A stretch of DNA of 32,000 nt, taken from positions 1 to 32,000 of the forward strand of contig NZ_LZJF01000180.1 of assembly GCF_001666835.1 (NCBI RefSeq), given 5' to 3'. Shown in pieces: positions 1-32,000 of the stretch. This stretch comes from Mycobacterium sp. E3251 (GTDB taxonomy: Bacteria; Actinomycetota; Actinomycetes; Mycobacteriales; Mycobacteriaceae). Position 1 is the stretch's first letter. Each line of letters begins with the position of its first letter. The position numbers were made by a program, and so were the translations under genes. The notes under the pieces are model-generated. The model searched no databases and was not told where the DNA came from. It saw only the letters and a program-made list of their open reading frames with translations.

Positions 1-77
1 ACGAAATCGTCGACGGTGATCCAACCGGGCGCGGTATGCGGCCCGGCGGTCATCGCGTCGGCGACGCGCACGCCGGA
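1..77. repeat. Left arm of a perfect 77-bp inverted repeat (reverse complement of 228..304). The window edge cuts it, so its length is a minimum.
   Basis: Manual base-by-base comparison: revcomp(1..77) equals 228..304 with no mismatch. Pairing fails at 78 vs 227. Confidence 0.95.
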
Positions 78-227
78 AAACATCTGCTGGGTCGATATCC
101 GCGTCTCCTCCTCGCGACTGGCCGCGAAGATGAACCAGCCGATGAACGCCAGCCAGACACCGCCGATCACGCCGCCCAACAAGAATTCGGCCAGCCCCAG
201 CCCGATCAGGATGAAGGCGACCACCCG
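78..227 (-). other. 150-bp (exactly 50-codon) spacer between the IR arms. Its minus strand encodes the transmembrane segment that belongs directly in front of the plus-strand CBS region.
   Basis: The minus-strand translation is [50 protein letters not shown]. It continues in frame into [14 protein letters not shown] (the IR sequence), which is also the beginning of the plus-strand CBS ORF. Confidence 0.75.
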
Positions 228-662
228 TCCGGCGTGCGCGTCGCCGACGCGATGACCGCCGGGCCGCATACCGCGCCCGGTTGGATCACCGTCGACGATT
301 TCGTCCAGCGCTATGTGCTCGGTGACCGGCATTCGGCATACCCGGTCGTCGACCGGAGCGGGGCGATTACCGGTCTGATCACGTTGCGCCGGTTGCGCGA
401 GGTCGCGCCCGCCCAGCGCGCGACCGTCACCGTGGGGGAGGTCGCGCAACCGCTTCACGAGGTCCCGTCCGGTGCGCCGCAGGAGCCGCTGACGGCCCTG
501 CTGGAGCGGATGGCGCCGGCCGGTCCCCGCAGCCGTGCCCTGGTGTTCGAGGGGGCTCAGGTGGTCGGCATCGTCACGCCCACCGATGTGGCGCGCCTCA
601 TCGAGGTCTATCGGCTTGCCCATCCCGAAGACGCGAAACCGGCGTCAGCGCAAAGCTTTTAG
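228..662 (+). CDS. C-terminal tandem-CBS portion of a membrane CBS-domain protein (M50 site-2-protease/CBS type, Rv2625c-like). The upstream part of the gene is not colinear in this window.
   Basis: Uses the frame of ORF 36..662. From [10 protein letters not shown] onward there are two CBS-like repeats ([19 protein letters not shown] and [21 protein letters not shown]). Residues encoded by 36..227 are the antisense of a TM segment and look non-genuine. The TAG stop is at 660..662. Confidence 0.7.
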
Positions 663-704: not shown

Positions 705-1061
705 ATGACGTACGTGATCGGGAAGCCATGCATCGACGTGATGGATCGCGCCTGCGTGGACGAGTGTCCCGTCGATTGCATCTACGAGGGCGGCCGCGCG
801 CTCTACATACATCCCGACGAATGCGTGGACTGCGGAGCATGCGAGCCGGTGTGCCCGGTCGATGCCATCTACTACGAAGACGACCTGCCCGAGGAGCTCA
901 GACCGTACCTGGCCGACAACGAGGCGTTCTTCACCGAAACGCTGCCCGGCCGCGACGCCCCCCTGGGATCCCCGGGTGGGGCGGCCAAGCTCGGGCCGCT
1001 CGGTGTAGACACGCCTTTGGTGGCCGCTCAGCCGAGGGCCGACCAAGCGGAAGGAGCGTGA
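705..1061 (+). CDS. fdxA: 7Fe-type ferredoxin (3Fe-4S plus 4Fe-4S).
   Basis: N-terminus is MTYVIGKPCIDVMDRACVDECPVDCIYEG...DECVDCGACEPVCPVDAI, with the tail LPGRDAPLGSPGGAAKLGPLGVDTPLVAA as remembered for mycobacterial FdxA (Rv2007c). I chose ATG 705 rather than the upstream ORF-track start at 684. Confidence 0.9.
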   Translation: MTYVIGKPCIDVMDRACVDECPVDCIYEGGRALYIHPDECVDCGACEPVCPVDAIYYEDDLPEELRPYLADNEAFFTETLPGRDAPLGSPGGAAKLGPLGVDTPLVAAQPRADQAEGA

Positions 1062-3493: not shown

Positions 3494-3512
3494 CATCGAC
3501 AGCCTGCCAGGC

Positions 3513-4049
3513 TCAGACCCCGCGCAGATAGCGCTTGGCGATGACGCGCTGGGCCACCGCCACCACTGGCCTGGCGGCCTTGCTCCACCAGGTCGCGGGC
3601 CGCGAGAATGCCGTCACCTCCGCGAACACCGCGGAGGTGACGGGGTCACGCCGCACCACGAAGCGCTCCTCGCCGGACTCCGGATGTCCCGGCAATGTCC
3701 CGTAGGCGAATCCGCGGATGTCGGGCTCGTCGACGACATACACCACCCGGCATGGCGCGGGCAGAAAACCCATGCGCACCACCACAACTGTGCCGACCTC
3801 GGCGACGTCGGAGCTGGCGCGCACCCGCAACCCCGCCCCGTGCTGCATGCCCCAGCGCATGACGGCGTCGGCGGCCCGCTCGAAGCGCTGCTGGCCCGTG
3901 CCGATCTGAGTCTCCGTGTGCAGGTGGCCGTATCCGGCGGGCAAGTTGCCGGATGCGGTCGCCCCCACCTCGGGATAGGTCAGCGGGAGTTCCTCGAGCG
4001 CTGCTAAGTCCACCCGCCCAGCTTGCCACGCCGAGGTGCGCGGCGACAT
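3513..4049 (-). CDS. DUF1990-family protein.
   Basis: Only the C-terminal 178 codons of ORF 3513..4865(-), starting at MSPRTSAW. Motifs LTYPEVGAT, GFAYGTLPGHPESGEERF and FAEVTAFSRP. The remainder of that ORF is antisense to the reductase gene. Confidence 0.8.
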   Translation of the reverse strand: MSPRTSAWQAGRVDLAALEELPLTYPEVGATASGNLPAGYGHLHTETQIGTGQQRFERAADAVMRWGMQHGAGLRVRASSDVAEVGTVVVVRMGFLPAPCRVVYVVDEPDIRGFAYGTLPGHPESGEERFVVRRDPVTSAVFAEVTAFSRPATWWSKAARPVVAVAQRVIAKRYLRGV

Positions 4050-10628: not shown

Positions 10629-11566
10629 TCCCGGGCCTGAGTTTGATCGGCACCCCCCGGCGCCTGGCATCCGGCACCGCGAGCGACTGGGGGTATGCGG
10701 CCGGCTGGATGGCCGTGCGGGCGATGCCGGAATTCGCCGCGCGCACCGCGTTCGGGGCGGGGGCGCGCTACGCGGCCCGCGGCGGCGGCCCGGACCAATT
10801 GCGCAAGAACCTGGCCCGCGTCATCGGCGTGCCGCCCGCCGAGGTGCCCGATGCGCTGATGCGGGCCTCGCTGGCCTCCTACGCCCGCTACTGGCGTGAG
10901 GCGTTCCGCCTGCCGGGGATGGATCTTCGCGCGGTCGCCCGCCAACTCGACGAGACATTCAAGGGTGCGGACAACCTGGACGCGGCGCTGGCGAAGGGCC
11001 GCGGGGCGGTCTGCGCGTTGCCGCACAGCGGCAACTGGGACATGGCCGGGGTGTGGCTGGCGCAGACGCGGGGCACCTTCACCACCGTCGCCGAGCGGCT
11101 CAAGCCCGAATCGCTGTATCGGCGTTTCATCGACTACCGGGAAAGCCTCGGCTTCGAGGTGCTGCCGCTGTCCGGCGGCGACCGGCCGCCCTTCGAGGTG
11201 CTCTGTGACCGGCTGCGGGACAACCGGGTGGTCTGCCTGATGGCCGAACGTGACCTCACCCGCTCCGGCGTCGAGGTCGACTTCTTCGGCGAACCCACCC
11301 GGATGCCCGCCGGGCCGGCGAAGCTGGCGATCGAGACCGGGGCGGCGCTGCTGCCCTCGCACTGCTGGTTCGCCGACGACGGTTCGCGCGTCTGGATTCA
11401 GCCGCCGCTGGACTGCAGCAGCGGCGACGTGCAGGCCATCACCCAGGCGCTGGCCGACCGGTTCGCCGAGAACATCGCCGCCCACCCCGAGGACTGGCAC
11501 ATGCTGCAACCCCAGTGGCTGGCCGACCTGTCCGATGCCAAACAGGCGCGGCTCAGGGAGACCTGA
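10625..11566 (+). CDS. patA: Phosphatidylinositol mannoside acyltransferase (LPLAT family).
   Basis: GTG 10625 overlaps the pgsA1 stop (GTGA). Motifs DWGYAAGWMAVRAMPEF, LPHSGNWDMAG, FTTVAERLKPESLYRRFIDYRESLGFEVLPL and DWHMLQPQWLADL match remembered Rv2611c. Confidence 0.93.
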   Translation: MIPGLSLIGTPRRLASGTASDWGYAAGWMAVRAMPEFAARTAFGAGARYAARGGGPDQLRKNLARVIGVPPAEVPDALMRASLASYARYWREAFRLPGMDLRAVARQLDETFKGADNLDAALAKGRGAVCALPHSGNWDMAGVWLAQTRGTFTTVAERLKPESLYRRFIDYRESLGFEVLPLSGGDRPPFEVLCDRLRDNRVVCLMAERDLTRSGVEVDFFGEPTRMPAGPAKLAIETGAALLPSHCWFADDGSRVWIQPPLDCSSGDVQAITQALADRFAENIAAHPEDWHMLQPQWLADLSDAKQARLRET

Positions 11567-13720: not shown

Positions 13721-15001
13721 CTATAGCCGGTCGAATGGGACGCCGAAGTCGGTCGGCGCGCTCAATGCGGCGGCGAGCGATTCCGGAATTGCTTGCGCCG
13801 CAACCGGAGTCAGGCCCGAGGCGGTGGCGAACGAGATGGATTGGAAGGGTCCGGGGAGCCCGGTGGCGTAACCGAAGTCGATGAACGGCTGAAGGAAGGG
13901 CTGGAGCAGGTCGGCGAGCGGATTCCCCAGGATGGGGATCATCCGCAGCGGGTCCAGCAGCGGCAGGTTCTGGGGAATCAGATAGTAGGTGGTCACGCCG
14001 ATGTGTGTCTGGATGGCGGTGGCAAGCTGCGCGGCGGTGAGCGTCGGATATGTCGAGTGCAGGTAGGGAAAACCCAAGAGGGCGTTGAGGTCCGCCCCGA
14101 TGTTGAAGATGCTCCGCGGGAAGTACGCGATGGGGTCGTATTGGAGCGTGTAGATGGCGGTCTGGTAGAGGGTGTCCACCGGAGTCACGACGTGAAACGC
14201 GCCAAAGCCGGGGATGAAGTGCGTGAGGATGCCGGTGCCGGGAACGTTCGGGTCGGAGAGCAGCACGAACGACAGCAGGTCCGAACTCGGCCGGATGGCC
14301 GCGGGCAGGGCGTCGAGATAGCGCATTTCGAGGGTGGCAATCGTGGCGCTCTGCGAATAGCCCAATACGACAACGTGATTGCCCGCACCGGTCTCGCTCA
14401 GAATGGCGCTGTTGAGTATCGAGACGCCCTGCCGGACCGACTGCCCGAAGGTTTCGCTGGTGAGCCCGGTGACGGGCCAGAAGTCCTCGGGAGTGGTCAG
14501 GCCCACCGGCGTATAGCCGGGGTAATGCGGGGCGATGTAGGTGCCGTAGACGGAACTCACGTAGGACGGGGTGGGTTGCGGGTTTCCGGTGCCGCCCATG
14601 ATCAGCGCGATGTTGCTCGACGACGTCGTCGTCGGCGTGCTTTGCAATTGGCTTGCCAGGCCCAAGCTTCCGCTCACCATCTGCTGCGAGGGCAGGGCCG
14701 GCGCTTGCGTGGCGGCCGCGTTGGAGGCCTCCGCCTGGGCATACGAATCGCTGCTGTCGATCAACGACTGCACGAACCGCTGATGAAACGCCTCCGCCCG
14801 CGCGCCGATCTCCTGATAGTGCTGGCCGAACGTCGCGAACAGCGCCGCGGTGCGGACGGACACCGCATCCGCGGCCGGGGGGAACACCATGGTCGTCGGG
14901 GTGGCAGCCGCCCCGTCCGCGGCCGCTATCGCCGAACCGATGCCCTGCAAATCTCCGGCGGCCGCTGCCAGCGTCTCCGGGGCCGTGACCACGAACGACA
15001 T
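13721..15001 (-). CDS. PE-family protein with a C-terminal PE-PPE (alpha/beta serine hydrolase-like) domain.
   Basis: Starts at MSFVVTAPETLAAAAGDLQGIGSAI. YxxxE motif SYAQAE. Thr/Ser linker. GYSQS nucleophile-elbow motif. Only the last 426 codons of ORF 13721..15700(-) are used. Confidence 0.9.
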   Translation of the reverse strand: MSFVVTAPETLAAAAGDLQGIGSAIAAADGAAATPTTMVFPPAADAVSVRTAALFATFGQHYQEIGARAEAFHQRFVQSLIDSSDSYAQAEASNAAATQAPALPSQQMVSGSLGLASQLQSTPTTTSSSNIALIMGGTGNPQPTPSYVSSVYGTYIAPHYPGYTPVGLTTPEDFWPVTGLTSETFGQSVRQGVSILNSAILSETGAGNHVVVLGYSQSATIATLEMRYLDALPAAIRPSSDLLSFVLLSDPNVPGTGILTHFIPGFGAFHVVTPVDTLYQTAIYTLQYDPIAYFPRSIFNIGADLNALLGFPYLHSTYPTLTAAQLATAIQTHIGVTTYYLIPQNLPLLDPLRMIPILGNPLADLLQPFLQPFIDFGYATGLPGPFQSISFATASGLTPVAAQAIPESLAAALSAPTDFGVPFDRL

Positions 15002-15015
15002 CGCATCGCCCCCGA

Positions 15016-16134
15016 CTAGCCGACCACCGGGCGCGCCAGCACACCGGAGCGCGGCGCCTCGGTCGCCGCATTCACCCCGGCCATCCCGCGCCCGGACGTG
15101 GTAACCGCCGGCTTGAACGGCACTCTCGGCACGCTCGGCGCCGCTTGACTCACGCCGGCGGTCGGCACGCCGGCAACCGGAGCAGTCGACGTGGCCGCCT
15201 GCACCTCGGTGGCCCAGCCCGGCGGAACCGACAGCGCCCCAATGGAACCCGCCCTGCCCGCCTGGGCCAACACCGCGGGAGCGCCCAGCTGTGGCGGGGC
15301 CTGCGCCCCAACGGCGGAACCGGCGGAGGCCAAGGCCGACCCCATGGACGGCATGCCGGCGACGGCGCTGCTCATCAACGGATTGGCGCCACCCATGAAC
15401 TGGCCCAGGACCTGACTGACGAGCATGCTCATGGGTTGCATGGCGAACTCGCCGCCCATCGAGAGCATCTCCAGCGGCGACAGCCCCGAAGTCGACGACG
15501 GGGAGAGCCCAAACGACTGAAACAGCGACGACATCAGCTGCGCGTCCGACATGGCCGATTGCGCCTGATCCGCCACCGATGCCGCGGCTTGAGGCGCGGG
15601 GCCGAGGCCGTCGGGCGGTTCGGCGAACGACGTCAACTGCGCCCCCACTGCCAGCGTGCTGGCATCGTAGGCGGTCATCGCGGTGGCGTCCTGGGCCCAC
15701 ATCTCGGAGTAGTGCGCCTCGGTGGCCATGATCGCCGGGGTGTTCTGGCCGAAGAAGTTCGTCGAGATCAACGCCATCAGCTGAGCGCGGTTAGCGGCGA
15801 TCACGGGCGGGGGCACCGTCATCGCGAACGCCGCCTCGTAGGCGGCGGCCGCCGCCGTCGCCTGGGTCGACACTTGCTCGGCCTGCAACGCGGTCGCCGC
15901 CAGCCAGGTGACGAACGGGCTGGCCGCGGCAGCCATCGCGACGGCCGACGGACCCAGCCACGGCCCGCTCGTCAGCGCCGAGATCACCGTCGCATACGAG
16001 GAGGCCGCCCACCCCAACTCGGCGGCCAACCCTGCCCAGGCGGCCGCGGCGGCCAGCATGGACCCCCCACCCGGACCGGCATACATCAATCCGGAGTTGA
16101 TCTCGGGCGGCAACAGCCCAAAATCCGGCACCAT
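15016..16134 (-). CDS. PPE-family protein (SVP subfamily).
   Basis: [22 protein letters not shown], a WxG motif (PWLGP), [10 protein letters not shown] and the C-terminal [15 protein letters not shown] Shine-Dalgarno upstream. Confidence 0.93.
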
Positions 16135-16360
16135 CCCGACCCCTCCTCAGCCAGGTTGGCGGCCGCCGTACCGCAACTAGGTGGCCACGCTTTTCGTCGC
16201 GCCCGTATCCACGGGTGTGAGCAAACTAACGATCAAGTGTGTGTAGCAAGGGGTCGATTTACGGGCCTAGGGCCAATCGGCCCTTTGTGGGTCCCACAGT
16301 GGGAAAACTCGTCTCCCGTCCCCACTAGACTGGGTCGACAACGGTTGAAGGAGATCAGCA

Positions 16361-19693: not shown

Positions 19694-20728
19694 TTACGAG
19701 GCCAAGTCGAGCCTTCCTGTCAGCGTCATCCAGTCGGCGCCCGAGACCGCATAAGCCGGAGGGTCGTGAATCACGGCCACGTTGTCGCTCCATAGGAATC
19801 GCTGCTGAAGCCCGCTGAAGTCGCGGCATCCGATGGTCAGTGGTTGGCTGCCGGGAATGCTTAGGGTCACAGCGGGCATCGTCGAAAAGTACTGGCCGGC
19901 AACATCGTCGAGCCGGTAGGTGGCCCTGGTCGCGGTCACCTGCGAAAGCGAGGCCGAGGCGGTGAGCGCGTTGCTGTCCGCGTCGATCACCCGGATCGTG
20001 TCGTCATCGACGTCGACGAACAGCTGCGGCTGCGACAGCGATTGCGCCAATCGCTGTTTCTTCATCAGCGCAAACGGCCCCATCTGCTGGATCAACAAGG
20101 GGTTCGGAAACAGCACACAGCGAGCCGGATCTCCCGGTGCGGGTTCGCCCACAGCCAAGCCGCGCCAGCGGCCGCTCAGGGACAACATCGCGACGAACTC
20201 CGGCTGGGACAACCAGGCATCGACGAGCGGCGCCGGCGGGGCACTGAGAGGTGTCGTCGGGCCAATCCGGCAGTCACGTCCGCCGAGAATGAATTGATGG
20301 CGGCCGCGCCGCAGATGAAGCGCCAGTCCCGTACTCGCCCACAGGCCTAGCTCGGCGTCAGCGAATGAGTAGAAATCGCCCCGAGCGCCGTCGATCGTGA
20401 GTCCCTCGGATGTGACGTCTAGGTGGTACTTGCGGCGCCATCGCCAAAGGAACAGGGCGCCGAGGGCGAGCCCCAAAACGGCCAACAACGCGAGCCAGCC
20501 GTAGGCGATCACCGGGCCGGGAACGTTCGGGAAGGACCGGTGGGAGCCGCGCGAGTTGCCAAAGGTGCGTCCGACCATCATCAGCACGACACTCAAAACG
20601 ATCGCCCAAAAGCCGATCTGGATGTAGATCGTCGCGCGCTTGCCGGTCAGTTTGGCCCAATTGGGCGAGTAGATCGAGCAGGACGCCACGAACGGGCGCG
20701 ACGCGGAAGACTCTCCGTTGACACTCAT
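19694..20728 (-). CDS. Hypothetical membrane protein with 2 TM helices followed by two PH-like repeats (lineage-specific).
   Basis: ATG 20728 is preceded by AAGGAG with a 5-nt spacer. TM helices are IYIQIGFWAIVLSVVLMMVG and VIAYGWLALLAVLGLALGALFLW. I recognise no characterised family. Confidence 0.65.
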   Translation of the reverse strand: MSVNGESSASRPFVASCSIYSPNWAKLTGKRATIYIQIGFWAIVLSVVLMMVGRTFGNSRGSHRSFPNVPGPVIAYGWLALLAVLGLALGALFLWRWRRKYHLDVTSEGLTIDGARGDFYSFADAELGLWASTGLALHLRRGRHQFILGGRDCRIGPTTPLSAPPAPLVDAWLSQPEFVAMLSLSGRWRGLAVGEPAPGDPARCVLFPNPLLIQQMGPFALMKKQRLAQSLSQPQLFVDVDDDTIRVIDADSNALTASASLSQVTATRATYRLDDVAGQYFSTMPAVTLSIPGSQPLTIGCRDFSGLQQRFLWSDNVAVIHDPPAYAVSGADWMTLTGRLDLAS

Positions 20729-20756
20729 GTCGACTCCTTGCTCGCCCGTCACCGGC

Positions 20757-21155
20757 TTATCCGTGGAACCCCGGGTCGTAGTGCGGCGGCACGGGGCACC
20801 AACCCGGGCCGCAATTCACACCCGAGGGATTGTCGGGCGGCGGATTGTCGCCGTCCCAGGTGTGTGAACTTTGCAGCGTCGGCTGTCCGTTGAGGGCGAT
20901 CCGCGGAACGTTTCCCCACCCGTCGGCGACGATGTACCACGTGTGGCACACAGACATATCCCAGACGTAGTTCTGTGCGACACCGCGGGACGAATTCGGC
21001 CCGCTCGGCCACTCCATTGACTGCCCTGGACACCAAGTGAACGGGCCCTTGTTGGCATGCGCGATGCCCTGGGCCAGTCCGATACCTGCGATTGCAAGGC
21101 CGACTGAGAGAACCAGGCCCGCCGCAGCCCGCAACACTTTTCTAGCGATATTCAT
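20757..21155 (-). CDS. Small secreted Trp/Cys-rich hypothetical protein.
   Basis: Signal peptide MNIARKVLRAAAGLVLSVGLAIAGIGLAQGIAHA followed by NKG. The mature part has 4 Cys and many Trp. GAAGGAA lies upstream of the ATG. Confidence 0.7.
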   Translation of the reverse strand: MNIARKVLRAAAGLVLSVGLAIAGIGLAQGIAHANKGPFTWCPGQSMEWPSGPNSSRGVAQNYVWDMSVCHTWYIVADGWGNVPRIALNGQPTLQSSHTWDGDNPPPDNPSGVNCGPGWCPVPPHYDPGFHG

Positions 21156-21325
21156 GTGCGTTCCTTCGGCTTGCGTCCGGCGGGTCGCCTAGGTGGCGTC
21201 GCCTTGCAAGTACACCGGTATCGGTGGGCTACCGATCCCAACACCAGAAACCGCGAGATCTCCGGCGCTCGCTGCTCAGTGTGCGCCGCGGGACGCTAAA
21301 AGCGCCGTCGAATTTCGAAACGGCC

Positions 21326-29637: not shown

Positions 29638-32000
29638 TTACAGCAGGCCGAGCAACTGCAGGTCGGTGATGTACTTGACGATGATCGGCGCCGAGACATG
29701 CGGAATGTCTTTGTCGGGGCCGATTTTCGCCTCCTGCACCGCGGCGCGGAAGCGATCGGTCGGTGCCATCGATCCGTTGATCGGCTCTGAAGGCTGCTGG
29801 TAGTTGTGCAGCAGCGGCAGCAGCGAGTACTGGCGTTGCCGCTCGGGCAGGCCCCGCATCGTCTGCTCGAACCGGCGCAGCCATTCGCCGTAGTCGGCGA
29901 TCCGCTGGATCCCAAAGCCGGCGTCGATCAGCCAGTCGACGTACTCGTCGAGCCCGATGCCGTCGTCGTACGGGTTCATCACGTGGTACGTCTGGAAGCC
30001 GTCCCCGGTGTCCAGCACCTGCGTCCCCAGCGTGGAGATCGCCGCGGCGATGAATTCGACCGGCAGGCCGTCGTAGTGCGAACGCTGACGGTTGCCCTCG
30101 GCGTCCAGCTCGTAGAACGAACCGGGTGCGACACCGGTCGCCACCAGGCTCAGCATCAGCCGGGTGAACATGTCGGGCAGGTTGAGCTGCCCGGCGTAGG
30201 TGGTGTCGGCCAGGATCATGTCGCACCGGAAGACCGTGACGGGCAGGCCGCACAGGTCGTGCGCCTCCCGCAGCAGCACCTCGCCGGCCCACTTGCTGTT
30301 GCCGTAGCCGTTGGCGTAGTTGTCGTTGATCTCGCGGGTAGCGCTGATCTGCCGGACGTCGGCGTCTTCGACGAACTGGCCCGGCTTGATCTGGTCACCG
30401 ACGCCGATCGTCGAGACGTAGGCGTACGGCTTCAGCTTGGTGGTCAGCGCGATCCGGATCAGTTCGGCGGTACCCAGCGTGTTGGGGCCGAACAGCTCGC
30501 TATACGGCAGGACGTGGTTCACCAGAGCGGCCGGATCGACGATCAGATCGACGGTGTCGGCCAGCCGCTGCCAGGCCGGCTGGTCCAGGCCGAGGTTGGC
30601 CTCGCCCTTGTCGCCGGCGATGACTTCGAGGTGGTCGGCGGCCAATTGCTGATAGTGCGCCACCAACTTCGGGTCGCCGTGCGGTGAGCCCACGCCGAAC
30701 GTCTTGTCCAGCCGGGCGCGCGCCTCGTCGTCGGACTTGGCCCGCACCAGCGCGATCACCTTGCCGTCCACCATGTCCATGCGCTCGAGCCACTCCAGCG
30801 CCAGGTAGCGGCCCAGGAAGCCGGTCGCGCCGGTCAGCAACACCGTTCGCACCTCGGTGGTGGGCCGGGGCAGGCTCGGTGCCGCGGTCAGGGTCTCCGC
30901 CTCGAGGAACTTGTCCAGGGTCAGGTCGCCTGCGTGCACCGTGCCGGCATCGCGTCCGTGGACCGCGGCGAAGGTCGGCCGCTTGGTGCCCTGGCGCTCG
31001 CCCTCGATGTAGCTGGCGATGGCCTGCAGGTCGCTGGCCGGGCTGACGATGACGCCCACCGGGACGTCGATGTCGAAGATCTCGCGCAGCAGGTTCCCAA
31101 ACGTCAACGCCGACAACGAGTCTCCGCCCAGGTCGGTGAAGTGCGCGTCCGGGGTCAGCTCGGTGCTCGCCGTGCCGAGCATGGCCGCGGCGGCCCGGCT
31201 CACCGTCTGCAGCACCGGCGCGTTCGCGCCGTTGCGGCGCAATTCGGCAAGCTCGTTGGCCTGCCCCTGGGCCAGCTCGGCGTAGAGCTGCTCGAGCCGC
31301 TCGCCGTAATGCTGCTTCAGCTTCGGCCACGCCAGCTTGCGGATCCCGGTCAGCAGACCGTTCTCCAGGCTGAACGGGGTGGTCTCGATGATGAAGTCGC
31401 GCGGCACCTCGTAGGACTGCAGGCCCGCCTGACGTGCGACGGCCTGCAACGAGTCGGCGATCTTTCCCTTGAGCGTCTCGAGGTCCCCCGAGGCCAGCGC
31501 TTCTTCGGTGGGCACCACGACGGCCAGCAGGTAGGGCTGGGCGCTGTTGCCGTAGACGTAGATCTGGCGCACCAGCGGGCTGTTGCCGAACTCGGCCTCC
31601 AGCTTGGCCAGGGTCACGAACTCGCCCTGCGCCAGCTTCAACACGTTGTTGCGGCGGTCGACGTACACCAGCTTGTCCGGCGCGATCTCGGCGAACACGT
31701 CGCCGGTCCGGTAGTAGCCGTCTTCGTCGAACACGTTCGCGGTGGTCTCGGCCCGCTTGTAGTAGCCGGGGAACATGTTCTCGGTGCGCAGCAACAGCTC
31801 GCCGCGCGGGTGCGGCCGGTCGGTGCTGAAGTAGCCCAGGTCCGGCACGTCGACGAGCTTGTAGTCGATCACCGGCGGGCGCTGAATCTCGCCGTCGAAC
31901 AGCACCATCCCGGCTTCGGTCGAGCCGTAGCCGTCCATCAGGTGCATCTCGAGCAGCGACTCGACCCAGGTGCGCAACTCCGGCGAGGTCGGGGCCGAGC
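29638..32000 (-). CDS. fadD9: Carboxylic acid reductase / fatty-acid-AMP ligase FadD9 (partial; the N-terminus lies beyond the right edge of the window).
   Basis: Adenylation-domain end ([14 protein letters not shown]), carrier-domain motif LGGDSLSAL, and terminal reductase domain ([26 protein letters not shown]). The reading frame stays open to position 32000. Confidence 0.93.

Follow-up and report, generated by a model that had tools for sequence, protein, structure and literature searches.

The first 304 nucleotides of the window (by which we mean the whole 32,000-nt stretch of Mycobacterium sp. E3251 DNA that was analysed) hold a perfect inverted repeat inside the reading frame of a site-2-protease-type gene, and the question that this locus raises is whether the repeat belongs to the chromosome at all. 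A preliminary description had named three candidates for it: an intragenic inverton whose flipping would toggle the membrane anchor of a CBS-domain protein, a longer inverted duplication, and a fold-back artefact. Intragenic invertons are known (bioRxiv 10.1101/2023.03.11.532203), and the first candidate, if true, would make this a Mycobacterium example of a recoding inverton inside a gene. The comparisons described below, which are all of sequences, lead us to a different answer, namely that the hairpin is very probably not a structure of the genome but a technical strand-split (fold-back) chimera, cut short by a de Bruijn assembler running at k = 77.

Geometry of the hairpin

An inverted-repeat search confirmed the perfect 77-bp repeat of the preliminary description: positions 1–77 and 228–304 are exact reverse complements (100% complementary) that lie 150 nt apart. 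An arm pair of this size is far beyond chance, and no further inverted repeat above 32 nt at 72% identity was found in the first 3 kb. The spacer (78–227) is 50 codons long, and its minus strand does encode the transmembrane (TM) stretch previously described, a hydrophobic segment ending ...QQMF that corresponds to residues 193–242 of a 386-amino-acid M50/CBS protein of relatives (below). Translation of the plus-strand open reading frame (ORF) 36–662 shows that it reads the antisense of the TM segment and then the CBS pair, and a computed flip of the spacer restores the native reading into the CBS-side frame; both statements had been made beforehand and both stand. Pfam assigns only CBS to the ORF at the hairpin end, and a Pfam scan of the window gave no peptidase domain, in agreement with the earlier observation that none is colinear with the hairpin there. 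Thus, of an HExxH domain, TM segments and a CBS pair, the CBS pair alone is colinear in the window. The features discussed here are collected in Table 1.

Table 1. Positions of the hairpin features, the neighboring gene and the other short inverted repeats at which contigs break. Positions are those of the window unless the related contig L001 is named. IR, inverted repeat.
Feature	Position	Strand	Remarks
Left arm, R′	1–77	−	Native minus-strand sequence; reverse complement of codons 1–26 of the CBS-side segment; no copy upstream of Q in relatives
Q′, last TM stretch of the site-2 protease	78–227	−	Continuous on the minus strand with 1–77
Native 12-nt IR arm TCCGGCGTGCGC, codons S-G-V-R	228–239	+	Strand-switch microhomology
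Right arm, R	228–304	+	First 77-mer common to the native (Q→R) and chimeric (Q′→R) paths
Genuine 3′ part of the Peptidase_M50 + tandem-CBS gene	228–662	+	144 codons + stop; Pfam CBS
Ferredoxin gene	705–1061	+	Pfam Fer4; anchor for retrieving related contigs
Site B	L001 12994		Three contigs break; 9-nt IR, 255-nt loop
Site C	L001 2138		Recurrent break; 8-nt IR, 116-nt loop
Site D	11224–11231 CCGGGTGG / 11295–11302 CCACCCGG		Native 8-nt IR, 63-nt loop; in acyltransferase (Lip_A_acyltrans) gene
Site E	15843–15853 / 16158–16168		CGGCGGCCGCC; native 10–11-nt IR, loop ~304–305 nt; two breaks at window 15852

The native locus in related genomes

Related contigs were retrieved by exact-protein match to the adjacent ferredoxin, and these relatives are NCBI-annotated as Mycobacterium sp. 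E1386-type, M. simiae group. In four of the contigs (L001–L004; GCA_001672745.1, GCA_001672665.1 and Logan SRR3394714 and SRR3394773) a single gene encoding a 386-amino-acid Peptidase_M50 + CBS protein lies directly upstream of the ferredoxin gene. Its parts follow one another on one strand in the order P (the M50 domain, with HExxH at residues 66–70), Q (the TM segment) and R/S (the CBS pair); a prime denotes the reverse complement of a part. The same P-Q-R order is present in L100, a 148-kb contig of the later run SRR24581811, whose Q is 100% identical to that of the window, and the Q of L001–L004, which is on the same strand as R, differs from the window's by one synonymous SNP. R is single-copy in all of these contigs, and its reverse-complement copy is absent from them. 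More widely, the nine close-relative contigs either have the native, intact arrangement or are cut at it, and all 79 orthologous loci from species-representative genomes are colinear; blastn on the orthologous loci gave 55 single HSPs that span P-Q-R and not one minus-strand HSP. The gene under the hairpin is an ordinary colinear site-2 protease with the full Peptidase_M50 + CBS architecture in all relatives, and window 228–662 together with the reverse complement of 78–227 encodes residues 193–386 of the WP_067948763.1-type protein. Alignment of the orthologous locus in relatives had been proposed as a check on the inverton reading, and the colinearity that it revealed throughout does not bear that reading out.

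Comparison with this native locus also decomposes the hairpin. Window 1–239 is the relatives' minus strand and window 228 onward is their plus strand, and these two parts overlap solely in a 12-nt inverted repeat (IR) that is native to the gene (228–239). The sole non-native junction of the hairpin region is therefore 227/228, and the path through the window is R′-Q′-R, where an inverted allele would read P-Q′-R. Window 1–239 differs from L001 by one SNP (position 159) and from L100 by none within Q.

The 12-nt inverted repeat

In L001–L004 and L100 the segment Q is bracketed by a perfect 12-nt IR, GCGCACGCCGGA / TCCGGCGTGCGC, of which GCGCACGCCGGA (codons A-H-A-G) forms the native end of the P region, directly before Q, and lies outside the window. 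The preliminary description had noted a 7-nt core at the inner ends of the hairpin arms; a repeat is indeed present at this place, but it is 12 nt long and already part of the native gene. In relatives this 12-nt IR alone bounds Q, and the arms of 77 nt have no native counterpart. It is not a conserved element: 38 of 44 orthologues lack any perfect IR at the inner ends, and the longest among the others is 8 nt. Conserved peptides that flank the TM segment, AHAG before it and S/AGVR after it (compared in L019–L083), can be encoded by mutually reverse-complementary codons, and the IR is perfect in the window's lineage because the wobble bases of its AHAG and SGVR codons happen to match. When the native minus strand is folded as single-stranded DNA (ssDNA) the 12-nt arms pair, in a stem that extends imperfectly to ~22 bp, and snap-back of such a strand is therefore plausible. 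The fold has a z of −1.47 and gives no sign of selection for structure.

Contig breaks at short inverted repeats

The base at which the window changes strand is also a base at which other assemblies stop. Four Logan (k = 31) contigs, each from a different run and together representing two lineages (SRR3392833_164, SRR3392834_313, SRR3394702_497 and SRR3394785_1108) start exactly at window 228, and two of the four are identical to the window over the compared 10.8 and 15.8 kb. The Q′-R junction recurs in at least five data sets. A chimeric junction would have to be fairly abundant to come through graph cleaning in four samples, a point that weighs against a technical origin. One of these runs, SRR3394702, also supplies the other side of the break. 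Its upstream contig (SRR3394702_220) crosses the IR and includes a further 18 nt of native Q; the final 31-mer of that contig begins 1 nt ahead of the IR. It follows from the position of this break that the R′-ir-Q junction (the reverse complement of Q′-ir′-R, where ir is the IR) is present in SRR3394702 and that P-ir-Q′ is absent, because a contig that met the latter would have ended on the final IR base. Inversion creates both junctions equally and gives a symmetric graph topology, so the one-sided junction argues against inversion in SRR3394702.

Breaks of this type are not confined to the protease gene. Of nine distinct contig breaks, six adjoin an IR of 8 nt or more (a count that accepted either of two expected geometries), where the null at random positions is 6.9%, and the four sites other than position 228 listed in Table 1 (B–E) show the same signature in these data sets. 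At site D the window reads through natively and sister assemblies carry a chimera of the same kind. The deposited contig LZKH01000020.1 starts there with ~65 nt of reverse-complemented loop, joined via the 8-nt IR to native sequence, and its first 73 nt are the reverse complement of positions 19891–19963 of LZKH01000114.1. The latter contig ends on the 77-mer 11295–11371, which starts at the IR arm; a terminal hairpin was looked for at this end and none was found, and the 77-mer vertex at site D explains the end. Among the k = 31 contigs, two (L015 and L017) have the first chimera-specific 31-mer of site D as their exact start, and another (L008) ends on the 31-mer that begins 1 nt before the left arm. 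The two contigs that end at site E are L016 and L017. This site lies at the end of a PE / PE-PPE + PPE gene pair (13721–16134, minus strand), in very GC-rich, repeat-prone sequence.

Three breaks (window 5143, window 27109 and L001:14782) have no adjoining IR of at least 8 nt and could possibly be due to coverage gaps or other repeats. Conversely, 56 other IRs of 10 nt or more, three of them 12 nt long, are traversed by the window without a break. An IR is therefore neither sufficient nor necessary for a break; the breaking process is stochastic, and other causes of fragmentation exist.

A possible origin of the chimera and of its 77-nt arms

These features can be accommodated by the following sequence of events. 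During library preparation, single-stranded minus-strand fragments would snap back on the 12-nt GC-rich repeat, after which the 3′ tail would be trimmed and the end would be extended along the same strand. The product molecules would have the structure ...S′ R′ Q′ R S..., and the strand-split or fold-back reads obtained from them would introduce a single false junction into the assembly graph, the Q′→R step at 227/228. The observed strand switch takes place at one locus and over a short distance, its switch point lies inside a natural short IR whose arms pair in the ssDNA fold, and the arms of the hairpin are longer than the native IR. The mechanism also allows a P-side hairpin (P-Q-P′), of which there is no trace in SRR3394702. 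Strand-split artefact reads, which map partly to the Watson and partly to the Crick strand, arise from ssDNA and T4 polymerase end repair and are suppressed by S1 nuclease (Haile et al. 2019, PMC6344851), and IR-mediated chimeric reads have been reported in sonicated libraries and described by the PDSM model (PMC10908179). A wet-lab origin, with libraries rich in ssDNA, would seem to apply here as well; a literature search for a published description of the preparation of these mycobacterial libraries or of their sequencing project did not find one.

The length of the arms would be explained by the assembly step. SPAdes has a largest default k of 77 for 150-nt reads. At k = 77, the 77-mer that immediately follows the false junction in the de Bruijn graph (228–304) would be a vertex with two incoming paths, and a contig that follows the chimeric edge would run back through Q′ to the conjugate vertex (1–77). 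There it would end, since the edge that comes next is the reverse complement of one already in use, and it would therefore begin with an arm of exactly 77 nt. The arm of the window is 77 nt long and touches base 1, and a contig end in the sister NCBI assembly GCA_001672745.1 is likewise defined by a 77-mer. From this agreement we infer that the assembler's k of 77, and not biology, set the arm length, and window position 1 is then presumably the end of a contig that was assembled with this k. The start of LZKH01000020.1, 65 nt before the 77-mer, is an offset that the plain k = 77 model does not predict. The preliminary description had cautioned that position 1 might be a k = 77 cut at an unresolved hairpin produced by fold-back chimeras, and the strand composition of the window, the breaks at short IRs and the 77-mer end in the sister assembly all favor that caution.

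Alternative explanations

Could Q nevertheless be a genuine intragenic inverton, a segment that part of the population carries inverted between the 12-nt IRs, with both orientations mixed by the assembler? The resulting protein would have the last TM stretch of the site-2 protease swapped for a hydrophilic 50-amino-acid segment, and the antisense frame of Q is in fact open and in frame, although such frames are often open at 69% GC. The recurrence of the Q′-R junction is what such an element would give, and short junction k-mers cannot separate inversion from fold-back, since inversion and paired hairpins give the same junction sequences. However, the P-ir-Q′ junction, which is obligatory for an inverton and expected to equal Q′-ir′-R, does not occur in the SRR3394702 graph (k = 31), which does contain Q′-R, and the assembled path of the window contains no P. 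Searches for the inverted form elsewhere were also negative: antisense-Q 5-mers occur in none of the 120 best protein hits (native Q occurs in 56), exact protein look-up of the chimeric ORF 36–662 and of its edge-extended form 3–662 returned no record, and the junction 34-mer had no match when all species-representative genomes were scanned. Some hits to the inverted isoform at 91% coverage appeared at first sight to support it and were rejected, as they carry native Q and align via their flanks only. The predicted truncated P-side products have no entry in the clustered protein collection, but their absence carries no weight, as this collection also lacks the known 144-amino-acid cut product. 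The earlier caveat that no recombinase gene is visible was upheld, in that no recombinase domain was found among the scanned ORFs of the 32-kb window or in the precomputed Pfam calls of syntenic loci; a recombinase might still be encoded at a distant place in the genome. The IR itself is only 12 nt long and is missing from most orthologues, and junctions of the same type occur at unrelated 8–11-nt IRs of other genes. A toggled membrane anchor is thus not supported, and we consider the intragenic inverton highly improbable. A low-frequency true inversion at this site deserves as little credence or slightly less, and an in vivo inversion of the 150 bp that needs no linked invertase, is frequent enough to break assemblies and replaces a helix by a soluble linker in the isoform is extremely improbable.

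The two remaining alternatives leave the orientation of Q fixed. A real inverted duplication or palindrome, fixed in the chromosome with the M50 gene truncated and with arms that extend well to the left of the window, would also branch the k-mer graph at 228, and the left arm touches position 1, which makes its length a minimum, as the preliminary description had pointed out. Yet the identical junction is found in two lineages ~1.3% apart, each of which has natively assembled isolates, so that a palindrome would need recurrent identical rearrangements. In addition, the arm is exactly 77 nt long and stops at window base 1, the junction is present in no species-representative genome, SRR3394702 has the P side and has it joined to native Q, and the signature shared by sites B–E points to a process that is data-set-wide. 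We therefore regard a long genuine inverted duplication as very unlikely. Pure assembler error, in which the graph was mis-joined through the 12-nt IR alone without any chimeric reads, would fit the coincidence of the switch point with exactly the native IR, but 12 nt is far below a k of 31 or 77 and cannot branch a graph by itself, so the reads must contain k-mers that span Q′ + ir′ + R. Independent assemblers (Logan with k = 31 and the k = 77-like NCBI assembly) moreover break at the same base, and we think that an assembler fault of this kind has only a very slim chance of being the cause.

Other features of the neighborhood

Three further regions came to our notice. Comparison of window 3494–3520 with L001:12797–14016 shows that an HTH_20 regulator gene and a DoxX gene are missing from the window's lineage (also L005 and L012); the difference is a ~1.2-kb indel among close relatives, between the NMO and DUF1990 genes, and break site B lies inside a gene missing from the window's lineage. 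Window 19694–21160 (minus strand) has two ORFs of ~344–352 and 132 amino acids, without a Pfam match, between YebC-like and spermidine-synthase-like genes. The window, L013–L015 and L018 have them and SRR24581811 (L012) does not; the region is a strain-variable insertion. A large ORF at window 29638–31977 (minus strand) combines AMP-binding (C-terminal part), PP-binding and NAD_binding_4 domains and resembles a carboxylic-acid reductase or the terminal reductase of an NRPS.

Discussion

The hairpin at the start of the window is most likely an artefact, neither a DNA switch nor a biological feature, and as such it carries no biological weight; the underlying gene encodes an ordinary site-2 protease. 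Its value is that of a cautionary example for inverton screens and for assembly quality control. Short GC-rich IRs in high-GC genomes can seed fold-back chimeras that fragment assemblies, and such chimeras leave hairpin or reverse-complemented ends in deposited records (the first 65 nt of LZKH01000020.1, for example), create spurious ORFs such as 36–662 here, and pass for intragenic invertons when inverton screens rely on repeats or short reads. A simple filter would be to distrust a perfect IR that combines three traits: an arm as long as a common k (such as 77 or 127), contact with the end of a sequence, and arms that reach beyond the native IR on one flank only.

How does this locus compare with known systems? 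It resembles the intragenic invertons (Chanin, West et al.; PhaseFinder/PhaVa) in having a short in-frame IR-flanked segment inside a gene, inversion of which would recode the protein, but it differs from them in that both junctions are not in evidence, no recombinase was found in the window, the 12-nt IR is not conserved, and the assembled alternative is the hairpin R′Q′R only and not the inverted allele PQ′R. With the site-2 protease of the WP_067948763.1 type (Mycobacterium sp. E1386) it shares residues 193–386, the window-derived part being identical or nearly so; the N-terminal 192 residues, HExxH included, fall outside the window, and the TM segment is on the wrong strand in it. The k-mer-length terminal repeats left by de Bruijn assemblers are similar in that the arm is exactly 77 nt and touches the first base, and in that the sister contig end is defined by a 77-mer, but their usual form is a direct overlap on circular replicons, whereas here the overlap is of the contig with its own reverse complement. 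Strand-split artefact reads were described at the read level, in human FFPE or sonicated DNA, whereas the artefact is seen here indirectly, through contig breaks and a hairpin contig end in assemblies of high-GC mycobacterial isolates. The likeness to these and to other IR-mediated fold-back chimeras (PMC6344851, PMC10908179) is nonetheless close, since in each case Watson and Crick parts of one locus, a short distance apart, are joined at a natural short IR, and since the same thing recurs at many IRs of the same libraries.
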